Virus record (IMG/VR): IMGVR_UViG_2541047784_000010
Coordinates: 1 to 40,741 of that record
Strand: one strand, 5' to 3'
DNA: 40,741 bases
From: a virus
Lineage: Duplodnaviria; Heunggongvirae; Uroviricota; Caudoviricetes
In this document: positions 4,980 through 9,588 of the stretch, in pieces
How positions within the stretch are numbered: the stretch's first letter is position 1
How the letters are laid out: every line of letters starts with the position of its first letter
Translations under genes and position numbers: made by a program
The notes under the pieces: generated by a model
Told to the model about the DNA's origin: nothing
Seen by the model: only the letters and a program-made list of their open reading frames with translations
Database searches by the model: none

Positions 4980-5868
4980 CCTCCAGTTTCGCTTTGCATT
5001 CTATGTAAATGGCTTGTATGTTCTGCTGCAATTTCATTCCAGATGTCAGGCGATATGCTTCTGCAAAATATCTCTTCAAATCATCCATGTTTTCAGCCTG
5101 AGCCATTTCATCACAAAGAAGTTGTGCTTTATCCGTTATTTCCTGCTGGCGTTTCCGTTCATCTTCGCGGATATCTTCCTCTGATTTGTGCGGCATAACT
5201 GGTTCAGTCCATACACCTTCTTCTTCGTTTAGTACGTGAATAGCACTATCAAGACGTGATGCCTTAGGCCAATACTTGCTTGCACGCTTTACGACCGTCT
5301 TTCGCGCCATCTCATTCCAGTGATTTACCCATGGTCCTTTATCGCTGAATGCCGCCTTGCTTGTTTTCCTTACAGCCTCAATTTCAGCCAGACTCATCTC
5401 TTCCGTTAGATAATCACCTGCTGGCGTCTTAACTGTGCAGTAAACGCCAACGATATCACCACGATCACCGAAGGCGTTGTATTTATGGGTTGGTGCTTTA
5501 TCAAGTCCGTTTGACTCATAAGTATCGTTAGCATGAACAAGCTTTGCCTGACCCCATGAGATAACACCAGACTCCATTGCAATATGTAGCAATCCCATAT
5601 AGCTGATATCAAGGCAAACCATGCCGTCGCGCGGAACCAGATAAGCCAGTTTGCTAGCCGGGTTTAAGGTGATACCGATCGCCGCAACATTGATGATGGC
5701 GTTCTGTGCGCTGGTTGGATTTGCCAGTGCTGTTTTAGCCAGGTAATCATTTTTCTGGAAATACTGAATTGCAAACTGGCTTTCCTTAGCCCATGTCACC
5801 GTCTGTTCAGTCAATGCCCCGCAGAATAACTGCTCCTGCTGTTTAACGAATTCAACGATATTGCTCAT
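4957..5868 (-). CDS. recT: RecT-family single-strand annealing recombinase
   Basis: 303 aa; sequence pattern typical of RecT/Red-beta family; position in early-left recombination module. Confidence 0.8.
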   Translation of the reverse strand: MSNIVEFVKQQEQLFCGALTEQTVTWAKESQFAIQYFQKNDYLAKTALANPTSAQNAIINVAAIGITLNPASKLAYLVPRDGMVCLDISYMGLLHIAMESGVISWGQAKLVHANDTYESNGLDKAPTHKYNAFGDRGDIVGVYCTVKTPAGDYLTEEMSLAEIEAVRKTSKAAFSDKGPWVNHWNEMARKTVVKRASKYWPKASRLDSAIHVLNEEEGVWTEPVMPHKSEEDIREDERKRQQEITDKAQLLCDEMAQAENMDDLKRYFAEAYRLTSGMKLQQNIQAIYIECKAKLEVASEQTI

Positions 5869-6176
5869 GCTGCTTCTCCATAAATGTGTCTGCGTTTGAA
5901 TATTGCGAAGGCATATTCAGCCTTAACTCTTTCGGTTATTGCATCCCAGAACCATTCAGCGGCTTTTTCCTGATAGTTACAGTCATCATCTTCCAGCCAG
6001 TCGATAGCGTCCTTAGTGTGTTCATCTGGTTTATATGAGCGAAGCATTTCGCTTATTGGGTCGCAACGTTTGCAGAGGCGATCAACTTCACTGTTGATTC
6101 GTTCGTAATCTTCATCAGTAAAACTTGCGATTATTTGCGATATTTCACGCTTATCATTCAGAGTCAGAATCATCAT
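5865..6176 (-). CDS. Hypothetical protein (103 aa), acidic
   Basis: ORF overlapping recT start by 4 nt. Confidence 0.5.
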   Translation of the reverse strand: MMILTLNDKREISQIIASFTDEDYERINSEVDRLCKRCDPISEMLRSYKPDEHTKDAIDWLEDDDCNYQEKAAEWFWDAITERVKAEYAFAIFKRRHIYGEAA

Positions 6177-6261
6177 CTTTCTCCTGTTCTTTGTGCTGAT
6201 TGAGCATTTTGTTCATCTGACGAATGAATTCTTCGTCTGACCAGTTATCTGTAAAACTCAT
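6154..6261 (-). CDS. Short acidic ORF (35 aa), not in ORF track
   Basis: Hand-translated MSFTDNWSDEEFIRQMNKMLNQHKEQEKDDDSDSE; ATGA overlap with cIII stop and overlaps start of downstream gene. Confidence 0.3.
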   Translation of the reverse strand: MSFTDNWSDEEFIRQMNKMLNQHKEQEKDDDSDSE

Positions 6262-6428
6262 GGACGGCCTTGTTGTTTCAAAATATCCCAAAGCTTTTCG
6301 AGCAAGCTTTTCATTCTTGGTTGTTTAAAGTCTGCTCCGGTTAAAATGTTTTTTCGTGAATGCTGTACCGATAAAATCGGGTTGAAAGGGCGAACCGATG
6401 CCGCCCCTGCAATAGCGAACTGTTGCAT
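6258..6428 (-). CDS. cIII: CIII-like protease (FtsH) inhibitor
   Basis: 56 aa from MQQFAIAG; resembles lambda CIII (MQYAIAG...LLERITRKLRDGWKRLIDILNQPGVP vs here ...LLEKLWDILKQQGRP); RBS AAGGAG. Confidence 0.75.
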   Translation of the reverse strand: MQQFAIAGAASVRPFNPILSVQHSRKNILTGADFKQPRMKSLLEKLWDILKQQGRP

Positions 6429-6492
6429 AGGATGCTCCTTCTGTTTGATTGCATAACGAAAACGCCTCGAGTGAAGCGTTATTGGTATGCAT

Positions 6493-6518
6493 ATAAAAAA
6501 GCCCTCACATTGGAGGGC
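6493..6518 (-). terminator. Rho-independent terminator
   Basis: Minus strand GCCCTC-caatgt-GAGGGC stem followed by TTTTTTAT; between AT-rich ORF 6623-6820 and cIII. Confidence 0.6.
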
Positions 6519-6622
6519 AAAGAAGATTTCCAATAATCAGAACAAGTCGGCTCCTGTTTAGTTACGAGCGACATTGCTCCGTGTATTCACTCGTTGGAAT
6601 GAATACACAGTGCTTCTCTGTG

Positions 6623-6820
6623 CTAAATAATTAAATCATATTCTGATTTGGTTAGTTTATAAGTACCTCCTCTGGTGTAATATGCAAATCTGTCTTTGCT
6701 TCCATCAGAATTGTATACCCATCCACCAAATGGAAAGATAGTGTCTATTTCTCCAATATCTTTTTCACAACTAAATGTCTTTCCATTTTTAGTTGAATAT
6801 GACTTACCAACTGTCAACAT
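6623..6820 (-). CDS. Hypothetical AT-rich cargo protein (65 aa)
   Basis: ORF with markedly lower GC than neighbours; occupies the lambda ea10 position between ral-like gene and cIII; followed by its own terminator. Confidence 0.5.
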   Translation of the reverse strand: MLTVGKSYSTKNGKTFSCEKDIGEIDTIFPFGGWVYNSDGSKDRFAYYTRGGTYKLTKSEYDLII

Positions 6821-6859
6821 CTTCGCCTCTGCTGTTTATGCCAAAAATAAAGGCCACCA

Positions 6860-7060
6860 TCAGGCAGCCTTGTTTTTCTGTTTACCAAGTTCTCTGGCAA
6901 TCATTGCCGTCGTTCGTATTGCCCATTTATCGACATATTTCCCATCTTCCATTACAGGAAACATTTCTTCAGGCTTAACCATGCATTCCGATTGCAGCTT
7001 GCATCCATTGCATCGCTTGAATTGTCCACACCATTGATTTTTATCAATAGTCGTAGTCAT
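6860..7060 (-). CDS. ral: Ral-like restriction alleviation protein
   Basis: 66 aa, starts MTTTIDKNQWCGQFKRCNGCK; matches my recollection of lambda Ral in length, sequence and position between N and cIII. Confidence 0.65.
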   Translation of the reverse strand: MTTTIDKNQWCGQFKRCNGCKLQSECMVKPEEMFPVMEDGKYVDKWAIRTTAMIARELGKQKNKAA

Positions 7061-7130
7061 ACGGATAGTCCTGGTATTGTTCCATCACATCCTGCGGATG
7101 CTCTTCGAACTCTTCAAATTCTTCTTCCAT
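7044..7130 (-). CDS. Tiny acidic ORF (28 aa), not in ORF track
   Basis: Hand-translated MEEEFEEFEEHPQDVMEQYQDYPYDYDY; GAGGTG RBS 4 nt upstream; overlaps ral start by 17 nt. Confidence 0.25.
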   Translation of the reverse strand: MEEEFEEFEEHPQDVMEQYQDYPYDYDY

Positions 7131-7263
7131 ATATCACCTCAAATAAGTGGTTTGCTGCCTAATTTCATTTTCTGGCGACCAACACAAGTCACACCCATTT
7201 CACTGCGTGGCTTGCGGTAGTAAATACGGTTATTTATGTCATTAAAAACCAGCGTGAGCGTGG

Positions 7264-7530
7264 TTATTTTTTCTTTCCAAGAGATGGAAGACCTCCAGAA
7301 TAATCTGGACCACTTGAACGATGCATTTGATACAATATTGCGTTTTTGTTGGCGTTTAGTGGCTTTGTTGCGAAAGAAATTTTTTCTCGTTTTACATCTC
7401 TTATCATCATCAACTCACGTTCTGATGCTTTTGGATGATAATCATTGATATGCTTCCATGCTGCCTTGGCGCTGAATTTTCTTCCACATAAAGGGCAATA
7501 GCATTTATATGATACTTGTTTGCTAGTCAT
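7264..7530 (-). CDS. Hypothetical protein with C2H2-like zinc-finger motif (88 aa)
   Basis: Motif CPLCGRKFSAKAAWKHINDYH (C-x2-C-x11-H-x4-H); directly downstream of N, in the position lambda uses for sieB. Confidence 0.5.
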   Translation of the reverse strand: MTSKQVSYKCYCPLCGRKFSAKAAWKHINDYHPKASERELMMIRDVKREKISFATKPLNANKNAILYQMHRSSGPDYSGGLPSLGKKK

Positions 7531-7532
7531 TT

Positions 7533-7841
7533 CTATCTCGCCGTAATTGATTTCATTGACCTGTAACCAGCAGCATACAGTGCAACTTCAGGCAAACAAA
7601 CGCTTCCGCCATTCGCATCTGTATTTGATTTACTGATGATGCCGAGTGATATTGCTTTTTCAGAAAGACTTAAACGCTTTCTCGGTTCTTCCTGAACAGC
7701 TTCCTCACTGTCTGTGCCGAAGATCGAATCGATGATGTTGCAGATGGAATCACGCTCGATAGCCAGCTTTCTGCGCCGCTCATGACGGCGAGTTTTGGCA
7801 TTTCCTGCAAATGTTGATTTTCCGTACACGATTACCGTCAT
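7533..7841 (-). CDS. N: N-type transcription antiterminator (P22 gene 24-like)
   Basis: Start trimmed to MTVIVYGKSTFAGNAKTRRHERRRKLAIER; arginine-rich boxB-binding motif; close match to my recollection of P22 gp24; downstream of PL and nutL. Confidence 0.85.
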   Translation of the reverse strand: MTVIVYGKSTFAGNAKTRRHERRRKLAIERDSICNIIDSIFGTDSEEAVQEEPRKRLSLSEKAISLGIISKSNTDANGGSVCLPEVALYAAGYRSMKSITAR

Positions 7842-7960
7842 GATGTTTTCCTCATGTGAAATGGCTTTGGTGGTGATGCGCCAGGTGCTGATCTTCTGGT
7901 TGCTGTCGTTGCAGCTGCAACTCACATCACCGCCAAACCCATCTCGTTTGGTATCTGTTT

Positions 7961-7996
7961 GCGCTTTGTCAGCGCCCCATCGAAGTTAAAGAGCCT
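7961..7996 (-). promoter_or_regulatory. nutL (boxA + boxB)
   Basis: On minus strand boxB GCGCTGACAAAGCGC (P22-type hairpin) preceded by boxA-like GGCTCTTTAAC; located between PL and N. Confidence 0.75.
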
Positions 7997-8040
7997 GCCA
8001 ATCTGTTCCGTTTGGCTTCCAGCTTCCTGCTGATGGCTAA

Positions 8041-8114
8041 ATAGTACGATGTGTACTTTATTGAGTCAATACAAAATGTTCTAAATGCGGTTAGTTTTTT
8101 ATAACACTTTGTAT
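8041..8114 (-). promoter_or_regulatory. PL promoter with OL operator sites (putative)
   Basis: Minus strand TTGACT-N17-TACTAT; three copies of motif ACA-N3-(T/C)GT-A(T/C) shared with OR region, one in the promoter spacer. Confidence 0.55.
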
Positions 8115-8132
8115 TTTATTGATTTATATTTT

Positions 8133-8163
8133 GGAAAAAGAAAACCCGACGATAAGGTCGGGT
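8133..8163 (-). terminator. Rho-independent terminator downstream of cI
   Basis: Minus strand ACCCGAC-cttatc-GTCGGGT stem followed by TTTTCTTTTTCC; lies between cI stop and PL (no rex genes present). Confidence 0.6.
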
Positions 8164-8194
8164 TATTGTTGTGTGTTTTAGAGTGGTGAGGCTG

Positions 8195-8854
8195 TTAACT
8201 AAATGTCTCTTCAGGCCACTGGCTGGCGATAACTTTCCCTACTACGGAACAGCTATCATTGCATGGGATCATTGGATATTGCGGGTTTAGTGGTTGTAGG
8301 AACACCTGACCGCTATCCCTGATCAGTTTCTTGAAGGTAAACTCGTCACCACCAAGTCTGGCTATGCAGAAATCACCTGGCTCAACAGCCTGCTCAGGGT
8401 CAACGAGAATTAACATCCCGTCAGGAAAGCTTGGCTTGGATCCTGTTGGTGCGGTCATGGAATTACCTTCAACTTCAAGCCAAAACGCACAATCACTGGC
8501 TTTTTTGGTTGTGCTGACCCATCTCTCCGCATCACCTTTGGTAAAGGTTCTAAGCTCAGGCGAGAACATCCCGGCCTGAACATGAGAAAAAACAGGGTAC
8601 TCATATTGTTTTTTAACGGGGGCAGATGAGTATTCGCCAACAGGTGAAAATGTACCGTCGTGGTTGAATGAGACGTTATCAATACCAAGGTATTTAAACA
8701 CCACACCAATCTCGTCAAGAGATGGATGACGAGATCCGCGCAACCAGTGACCAATTCCACCCTGCGTCATACCAAGCTCTTCAGCTAACTTCTCTTGAGT
8801 TATGCCGAGTTCTTTCATTCTGGATCTAGCCAGTTCATACCATTTCATTTTCAT
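8195..8854 (-). CDS. cI: CI-type immunity repressor (LexA-like S24 peptidase C-terminal domain)
   Basis: C-terminal ~130 aa match my recollection of lambda CI nearly residue for residue ([19 protein letters not shown]...[13 protein letters not shown]...[27 protein letters not shown]), including Ala-Gly cleavage site and Ser/Lys dyad; N-terminal HTH is unrelated to lambda; start set at MKMKWYEL with AAGGAT RBS. Confidence 0.9.
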
Positions 8855-8966
8855 ATCCTTATTATTACGCTCTGTACTAAAACCATCCATGCACAAGATG
8901 TATTTTTTTGTTTGCATTCCAAAAGTACATATCGTATTATTGTTTCATGGTTACTATGGAGGGCAT
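8855..8966. promoter_or_regulatory. OR region: divergent PR/PRM with operator sites (putative)
   Basis: PR TTGCAT-N17-TATTAT on plus strand ~25 nt before cro RBS; operator-like motifs ACAAGATGTAT and ACATATCGTAT (latter in PR spacer) shared with OL. Confidence 0.6.
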
Positions 8967-9182
8967 ATGAGCAACCTACGAAAATATCGAGAGTCACTGA
9001 ATATCTCTCAAACAACACTTGCTAAGGCGGTTGGATGCACACAGGGAGCTATCGGACATTGGGAATCTGGTCGTCGCTTCCCAGACCTTAAAACATGCCG
9101 TGCTCTTGTTGCGTGCCTAAACAAGTTAGGCGCAAAAGTCAGTCTTGATGACGTGTTCCCACCGGAACACAAAGCCGCTTAA
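8967..9182 (+). CDS. cro: Cro-type repressor
   Basis: 71 aa from MSNLRKYRESLNISQTTLAKAVGCTQGAIGHW; HTH recognition region nearly identical to that of the cI N-terminus (TQGGIGHW), as expected for shared operators; RBS GGAGGG. Confidence 0.8.
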   Translation: MSNLRKYRESLNISQTTLAKAVGCTQGAIGHWESGRRFPDLKTCRALVACLNKLGAKVSLDDVFPPEHKAA

Positions 9183-9193
9183 TAAGCGGATCC

Positions 9194-9228
9194 GCTCTTT
9201 ATCAATCTGCACCGCCGACAACGCGGTA
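9194..9228 (+). promoter_or_regulatory. nutR (boxA + boxB)
   Basis: boxA CGCTCTTTATCA followed by hairpin ACCGC-cgacaac-GCGGT, just downstream of cro. Confidence 0.7.
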
Positions 9229-9235
9229 ACTAATT

Positions 9236-9275
9236 AATCACTCATCGAAAGATGAGTATTAGTGATTATTTACCT
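9236..9275 (+). terminator. tR1-like terminator candidate
   Basis: Nested inverted repeats AATCACT / CTCATC-gaaa-GATGAG / AGTGATT followed by T-rich stretch between nutR and cII. Confidence 0.3.
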
Positions 9276-9291
9276 ATGGAAATAGTAAGAA

Positions 9292-9588
9292 ATGGAACAA
9301 ACAAGTTACAGCAAACTATCACAGCGCGACGTTGATCGCGCAGAAACAGATTTACTCATCAACCTGTCAACGCTTACCCAGCGCGGTCTGGCAAAGATGA
9401 TTGGCTGTCATGAATCGAAGATCAGTCGTACCGACTGGCGGTTTATTGCTTCGGTCTTGTGTGCTTTCGGAATGGCATCAGACATCAGTCCGATTAGCAG
9501 GGCTTTTAAGTATGCGCTTGATGGACTCACCAATAAAAAACGCCCGGCGGCAACCGAGCGTTCTGATCAAATACAAATGGAATTTTAA
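9292..9588 (+). CDS. cII: CII transcriptional activator
   Basis: 98 aa; C-terminus LTNKKRPAATERSDQIQMEF is essentially lambda CII (ILTNKKRPAATERSEQIQMEF); HTH region KISR conserved. Confidence 0.85.
   Translation: MEQTSYSKLSQRDVDRAETDLLINLSTLTQRGLAKMIGCHESKISRTDWRFIASVLCAFGMASDISPISRAFKYALDGLTNKKRPAATERSDQIQMEF

Follow-up and report, generated by a model that had tools for sequence, protein, structure and literature searches.

The 40,741-nucleotide stretch analysed here (hereafter the window; IMG/VR virus record IMGVR_UViG_2541047784_000010, positions 1 to 40,741) carries on its minus strand, between a ral gene and a cIII-like gene, a small open reading frame (ORF, positions 6623-6820) of 65 amino acids that is followed by a hairpin and T-run. 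The window is 100% identical, over the stretch compared, to the E. coli chromosome NZ_OZ040490.1. An initial annotation of the DNA had described an ORF of this length between a Ral-like gene and cIII, with a GC content below that of its neighbours, and both points are borne out. The GC content of the ORF is 31.3% overall and 21% at third codon positions (GC3), against 41-44% for ral and cIII and 45.6% for the window as a whole, which ranks it in the lowest 1.1% of all 198-bp windows and in the lowest 0.04% of those within the first 9 kb. The same annotation had viewed the ORF and the hairpin together as a moron of no recognised family, standing where phage lambda has ea10; these further claims fared less evenly, as described below.

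On the evidence of its homologues and its substitution pattern, the ORF is a genuine protein-coding gene under purifying selection. The full translation, MLTVGKSYSTKNGKTFSCEKDIGEIDTIFPFGGWVYNSDGSKDRFAYYTRGGTYKLTKSEYDLII, matches the hidden Markov model of phrog_15499 (PHROGs v4) over its entire length (E=6e-49, 165 bits, positions 1-65 of 65), and no feature sets it apart from a full member of that family, which is labelled 'unknown function' in PHROGs v4, is without a model in Pfam or NCBIfam and lacks a studied representative. Comparison with an allele that is 69% identical gave a ratio of nonsynonymous to synonymous substitution rates (dN/dS) of 0.17-0.20 (Nei-Gojobori), and the substitutions among near-identical E. 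coli copies are mostly synonymous. The earlier view that no family is recognisable holds only in part: no Pfam, NCBIfam or PADLOC model matches the protein, but it has the full-length phrog_15499 match and 25 small homologues.

Discovery of these homologues required an exhaustive phmmer search, because a word-indexed single-sequence search of 5.8 billion proteins returned only the protein's own cluster (a 90% cluster of 37 sequences on 108 contigs); the exact protein is present in 221 blocks of the assembly index. Against 1.84 billion representatives, phmmer gave 29 matches at E<=1e-3, 26 of which are small (38-102 amino acids). One of the 26 is a 38-amino acid fragment of the same protein and was left out of the alignment (A1), which comprises the query and 25 homologues of 53-102 amino acids, 26 sequences in total. 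The 25 homologues share 34-69% identity with the ORF protein, and the alignment contains the conserved blocks GKxY.T.NG, YPFxG.V, DGxxDRIAYYT..G.Y and SEYDL, with Y8, R44, G52 and Y54 invariant. All 26 aligned proteins match phrog_15499 and no other PHROG, and none of them matches a Pfam model at E<=1. Scans of the window ORF found no match in NCBIfam and 0 families at E<=1 in PADLOC, a sequence search of the PDB with the family profile gave nothing meaningful, and nothing relevant was found in the literature on PhiR11, 2G7b, WP_156628888 and phrog_15499. An evident homologue with a mundane function would have spoken against the initial view; homologues do exist, but all are uncharacterised.

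Three long proteins, P0013, P0018 and P0026 (693-1351 amino acids), were set aside as homologues, their matches being repeat-driven and of low complexity, with 5-7 short stretches in each. Among the small homologues, P0010 (69 amino acids, Leminorella grimontii, L016 6001-6210) bears the UniRef name 'Rhs family protein', which looks like an annotation error because the protein has no RHS_repeat match and lies in a prophage early operon, not in an Rhs locus. P0014 (86 amino acids, L007 6001-6261, on a 29%-GC phage contig) has a Cys-rich C-terminal tail, CTFCGKSGCNGKCY, that is unique within the family and may represent a small added zinc-binding knuckle.

Comparison with lambda and HK106, neither of which has the ORF, indicates that the ORF is a rare, discrete, AT-rich extra gene in a conserved lambdoid backbone. 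Blastn breakpoints against both phages fall at 6828/6827 and 6614/6613, enclosing an insert that consists of the ORF, 7 nucleotides before its start codon and 9 nucleotides after its stop codon. The backbone downstream of the insert (6490-6613) is 98% identical to HK106, and the Shine-Dalgarno-like AGAGG that precedes the ORF spans the left junction, AGA belonging to the backbone and GG to the insert. The pentamer CAGAG is found at both ends of the insert (6616-6620 and 6827-6831, minus strand); it was not read as a target-site duplication, as deletion between the two copies fails to restore the lambda sequence.

With regard to rarity, the ORF is present in only four of the 339 phage records that share its flanks, and these represent two distinct phages, 2G7b and PhiR11_1, which are also the only two distinct isolated phages with the ORF among 50,697 phage records. 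A tblastn search of the same 50,697 records with two distant family members recovered only the four records already found. The ORF is intact in six of 5,426 complete E. coli genomes, and in two others it is truncated by IS3. In the latter two, strains CE10 (L006 1747-3144) and N32, an IS3-family element replaces the 5' half of the ORF, leaving a remnant made up of the 3' part of the ORF, the terminator region described below and cIII.

The strong terminator that had been assigned to the ORF does exist, as a hairpin and T-run at 6518-6493, but its sequence relationships place it with the phage backbone and not with the ORF. It starts 105 nucleotides after the ORF stop codon, within the backbone block 6490-6613, and it is not the ORF's own terminator because this block is common to lambda and HK106, which lack the ORF. 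The block is present in hundreds of phages without the ORF, and the HK106 record marks the homologous position as a rho-independent terminator.

In lambda, according to a 2024 bioRxiv preprint, the stretch between ral and ea10 encodes an Hfq-dependent small RNA (sRNA), LPR1, renamed PreS (10.1101/2024.10.31.621285). Lambda PreS is ~88 nucleotides long, is processed to ~68 nucleotides and has as its 3' end tL2a, a terminator of the early left operon; it is produced during the lytic cycle and acts as an activator of host dnaN translation (10.1101/2024.10.31.621285). Both Hfq binding and dnaN activation are reported for lambda PreS only (10.1101/2024.10.31.621285). The window possesses a PreS orthologue that is identical to lambda with two exceptions, a G>A substitution in the loop of the terminator and a 2-nucleotide deletion before the T-run. 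The minimum free energy fold (z=-4.45) reproduces the lambda layout of a 5' stem-loop, an unpaired UUCUGAUUAUUGGAAAUCUUCUUU stretch that is identical to that of lambda, and a terminator hairpin with a U-tail; the predicted structure accordingly has the GC-rich terminator hairpin, the U-tail and the unpaired seed of an Hfq-type sRNA. The surroundings of the sRNA differ, as lambda PreS directly follows ral and is followed by ea10, whereas the window PreS follows the 65-amino acid gene and ea10 is absent. A scan of positions 5500-9500 against Rfam 15 (E<=1) found nothing, there being no Rfam model for PreS. The orthologue is unannotated in all records inspected, with HK106 marking the terminator only.

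The hairpin and T-run that fill most of the spacer between ral and the ORF are likewise backbone, and are also found in lambda, HK106 and PKF8. In all, three hairpin/T-run elements lie within 420 bp around the ORF. Downstream of the 69%-identical allele (L025 5241-5345, L026 745-840) there is an element of different sequence but with the PreS layout, namely a 5' hairpin, followed by an unpaired (G)UUCUGAUUAAAUGCCUU stretch with the UUCUGAUUA core in common, and then a terminator. Salmonella/P22-like backbones may thereby have a divergent variant of PreS.

The proposal that the ORF stands where lambda has ea10 did not survive comparison with other phages. In lambda, ea10 is found on the downstream side of tL2a, and both genes occur in PhiR11_1 and 2G7b, in the order ral - ORF - PreS/tL2a - ea10 - gam. 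Replacement of ea10 by the ORF is ruled out by this coexistence on opposite sides of tL2a. Like the ORF, lambda Ea10 is small, non-essential and encoded in the pL operon between ral and cIII, but the two have no sequence similarity and occupy different sides of the terminator. The window itself is without ea10, as is HK106, and the junction falls right after the tL2a T-run, at 6490.

Table 1. Genes, backbone blocks and RNA elements around the 65-amino acid ORF of the window
Feature	Position	Strand	Description
cIII-like gene	6258-6428	minus	Next gene downstream of the ORF; phrog_550, E=1e-22
Terminator-like hairpin	6461-6480	minus	Just before cIII; common to HK106
tL2a-type intrinsic terminator	6493-6518	minus	GCCCTCCAATGTGAGGGC then TTTTTT; terminator scan
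PreS (LPR1) orthologue	~6495-6582	minus	~88 nucleotides; 5' end approximate; homology to lambda
12-bp hairpin	6581-6608	minus	GUGUAUUCAUUC/GAGUGAAUACAC; between ORF and PreS; lambda backbone, conserved in lambda and HK106
Backbone block	6613-6490	minus	Lambda 34045-33920, 96.8% identity over 126 nucleotides (blastn)
214-bp segment	6614-6827	minus	33% GC; replaces 9 bp, ATAAACACT, of lambda and HK106 (blastn breakpoints)
ORF, phrog_15499 member	6623-6820	minus	65 amino acids, ATG start, MLTVGKSYSTKNGKTFSCEKD...; predicted soluble SH3/Tudor-like beta-barrel
Shine-Dalgarno-like AGAGG	6826-6830	minus	5 nucleotides 5' of the ORF ATG; read from sequence
Terminator-like hairpin and T-run	6850-6871	minus	Overlaps ral stop; fills most of the ral-ORF spacer; -13.9 kcal/mol, z=-2.7
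ral, restriction alleviation	6860-7060	minus	Directly upstream of the ORF; PF11058, E=1.2e-47; phrog_1055
Backbone block	7155-6828	minus	Lambda ral region, 97% identity (blastn)
88-amino acid ORF	7264-7530	minus	Between N and ral; C2H2/C2HC-like zinc-finger motif; phrog_20899, unknown function

Farther upstream of ral are the 88-amino acid zinc-finger-like ORF, for which the Pfam zinc-finger matches are sub-threshold only, an N-type antiterminator and a cI-like repressor. The segment holding the 88-amino acid ORF is the one where lambda has sieB, on the opposite strand. From this gene order, the ORF is therefore placed in the leftward early (pL) operon of a lambdoid prophage, in agreement with the initial annotation, in the operon segment that holds Ral, Lar, cIII, Kil and recombination genes.

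This position is conserved across divergent members of the family, the homologues nearly always lying in the repressor-proximal leftward early operon of lambdoid prophages. The ral-ORF spacer of the window is 39 nucleotides, and the identical protein is found 39 nucleotides after Ral, or after an unrelated 83-amino acid protein, in prophages that differ in their repressors and in their N proteins. The 69%-identical allele, P0003, begins 8 nucleotides after its upstream gene (an N36-type N in L026/L027) and lies ~200 nucleotides before cIII, with the PreS-like element in between. More distant members show related arrangements: P0008 and P0036 have an S24 repressor upstream and RecT/YqaJ or Erf downstream, and the gene for the Leminorella protein P0010 lies, within a prophage early operon, between a DUF1391 gene and a Lar restriction-alleviation gene that follows it after 11 nucleotides. 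The distance to a Lar gene is 3.4 kb for another homologue, and P0014, P0032 and P0040 belong to small-gene arrays on phage contigs whose GC content is 29-39%. Members of the family are usually 4-13 GC points below their flanks.

The structure of the ORF protein was modelled with AlphaFold2 from the 26-sequence alignment, which gave an all-beta domain with four long strands (predicted local distance difference test score, pLDDT, 97.5; predicted template modelling score, pTM, 0.84). The model, which is very confident, predicts a small all-beta SH3/Tudor-like barrel. Profile and structure searches had been named at the outset as a check on the ORF, and they were productive in part: the phrog_15499 profile and the structures of phage proteins in BFVD gave matches, but Pfam, NCBIfam and, for the PDB, Foldseek with the ORF model gave nothing significant. 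The best structural matches in BFVD (template modelling score, TM, 0.7-0.78) are all uncharacterised phage proteins, in some of which the barrel is one domain of a protein of 110-250 amino acids. Bacterial Tudor/SH3-like barrels, including the UvrD/PcrA C-terminal domain, the CarD RID, YfhH, HspQ, KOW and PsaE, have no sequence relationship to the ORF (2-21% identity) and no demonstrable functional residues in common with it, and their scores are within the range expected of any small barrel. As a family, the proteins are hydrophilic, have no hydrophobic segment, contain 10-21% aromatic residues and have a median net charge of -1. These properties argue against a membrane protein, an acidic DNA mimic or a typical basic nucleic-acid binder, and would fit a small protein-binding module.

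The explanation considered to have a slightly better than even chance of being right as a whole is that the locus combines two unrelated elements, a real accessory gene of a rare, phage-only family and the lambda tL2a/PreS that follows it, with the gene expressed and functioning in the following manner. Transcription of the ORF would start at pL and, after N antitermination, continue past the hairpin that overlaps the ral stop, which would make the ORF product a delayed-early lytic protein. This protein of 65 amino acids, near-neutral, aromatic-rich and with a single domain, would bind a host macromolecule or, less likely, a phage one, and could act as a dispensable host-takeover or counter-defence factor in the manner of its operon neighbours Ral, Lar, cIII, Kil, Gam and Abc2. 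PreS would here belong to the 3' untranslated region of the ORF and not, as in lambda, to that of ral. Several points weigh against this explanation. The ORF was left uncalled by PGAP/RefSeq in the source genome, NZ_OZ040490.1 (L002 3041-3238, corresponding to window 6623-6820), and its transcription and translation are predictions. A weak or non-canonical promoter may lie inside ral, the lack of a sigma-70-like promoter on the minus strand at 6820-7100 having been established by a consensus scan alone. Finally, the adjacency to Ral or Lar may reflect mere shared operon position.

The locus was initially taken to show a moron signature. A moron, as defined for HK97 and HK022, is an extra gene of deviant composition that is situated between conserved genes and comes with a promoter and a terminator of its own. 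The ORF agrees with the morons of lambdoid phages in being a gene of foreign composition, with clearly lower GC, on a discrete insert between conserved blocks. It differs from them in having no promoter of its own and in being flanked by terminator-like hairpins that are backbone, and the strict definition fails on two defining features because the ORF has neither its own promoter nor its own terminator. A strict moron would be an autonomous cassette, expressed from the repressed prophage by a promoter inside or just after ral and benefiting the lysogen through superinfection exclusion or defence. The AT-rich insert (31% GC) in a conserved backbone, the two hairpin/T-run elements that bracket the ORF and the presence of exclusion genes such as sieB in the same operon region of related phages would all be expected of such a cassette. 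However, both hairpins are present in lambda and HK106 without the ORF, the downstream one being PreS/tL2a, no promoter-like site lies upstream on the coding strand, and a PADLOC match is absent. Homologues are also packed into early operons without a promoter or terminator: no adjacent promoter was found for the family members in L016, L023 and L025, and no same-strand terminator in L016 and L023, while L025 has only the backbone PreS-like one ~120 nucleotides downstream. An autonomous cassette is consequently considered unlikely, and the ORF is probably lytic and driven by pL rather than expressed from the prophage, unlike a moron.

Location immediately downstream of Ral raises a different alternative, a helper that acts with or like Ral or Lar against type I restriction-modification to protect phage DNA as it enters or replicates. 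The Leminorella homologue adjoining a Lar_restr_allev gene, and the other one 3.4 kb from Lar, are suggestive of this role, but many copies are found without Ral, their upstream gene encoding the 83-amino acid protein or N, and adjacency of this kind is to be expected whichever gene occupies this part of the operon. As the protein is not acidic, a DNA mimic of the Ocr/ArdA type is unlikely, and neither its sequence nor its fold links it to Ral, Lar, Ard or Ocr; a helper in anti-restriction is thus improbable. The predicted fold could also be taken to suggest a Tudor-like factor that docks on the beta lobe of RNA polymerase, as do the UvrD/PcrA C-terminal domain and the CarD RID, and modulates transcription of the host or of the phage. 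Histone-reader Tudor domains, PsaE, KOW, SH3 and HspQ score equally well, however, Foldseek against the PDB found no significant match, there is no conserved motif in common, and none of the 26 family members matches Pfam, including the RNA polymerase-binding Tudor-like families (CarD_TRCF_RID and UvrD C-terminal). Such a factor is regarded as very unlikely. The least probable of the alternatives is that the ORF is a chance or decaying one, a functionless AT-rich spacer that happens to be open. Its rarity, the absence of a PGAP call in the source genome and its disruption by IS3 in two genomes without obvious consequence are what such a spacer would show, but homologues down to 34% identity are conserved in unrelated phages, the structure model is very confident, the ribosome-binding site is good, and the exact protein and its 90% cluster recur across the assemblies as given above. 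This possibility is excluded for practical purposes, because of the homologue family, the phrog_15499 match and the low dN/dS.

Returning to the favoured explanation of an accessory pL gene followed by tL2a/PreS, a more ambitious version of it is that phrog_15499 constitutes a new class of small Tudor/SH3-like early pL effectors, each neutralising a specific host protein, and hence a new anti-defence or host-takeover family. This is a speculative and rather doubtful proposition, as are the targets that would go with it, such as a restriction complex, RNA polymerase or a sensor or effector of a defence system. In this version, expression of the ORF might also be coupled to the biogenesis of PreS, which is located at the 3' end of the ORF mRNA. 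In lambdoid phages, the part of the pL operon that extends from N to the recombination genes is the site of small effectors directed at the host, including Ral, Lar, cIII, Kil, Gam and Abc2. The ORF encodes a rare, well-folded and selectively maintained protein of 65 amino acids in that same region, making it a reasonable candidate for a new factor in host binding or counter-defence, and it is directly testable because PhiR11_1, which plates on E. coli K-12, carries it. In itself, the ORF is a rare, small, uncharacterised early accessory gene of lambdoid phages, of a kind already known and catalogued as phrog_15499. Current ideas on lambdoid phages are unchanged by it, and it holds nothing surprising to a specialist.

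Two points of annotation arise from the locus. The apparent terminator of a cassette is the recently described PreS sRNA, for which Rfam has no model, and the ORF is left unannotated by RefSeq in the source genome. The same gene is called by RefSeq in strain PKF8 (WP_156628888.1), an inconsistency in the annotation of a conserved small gene.
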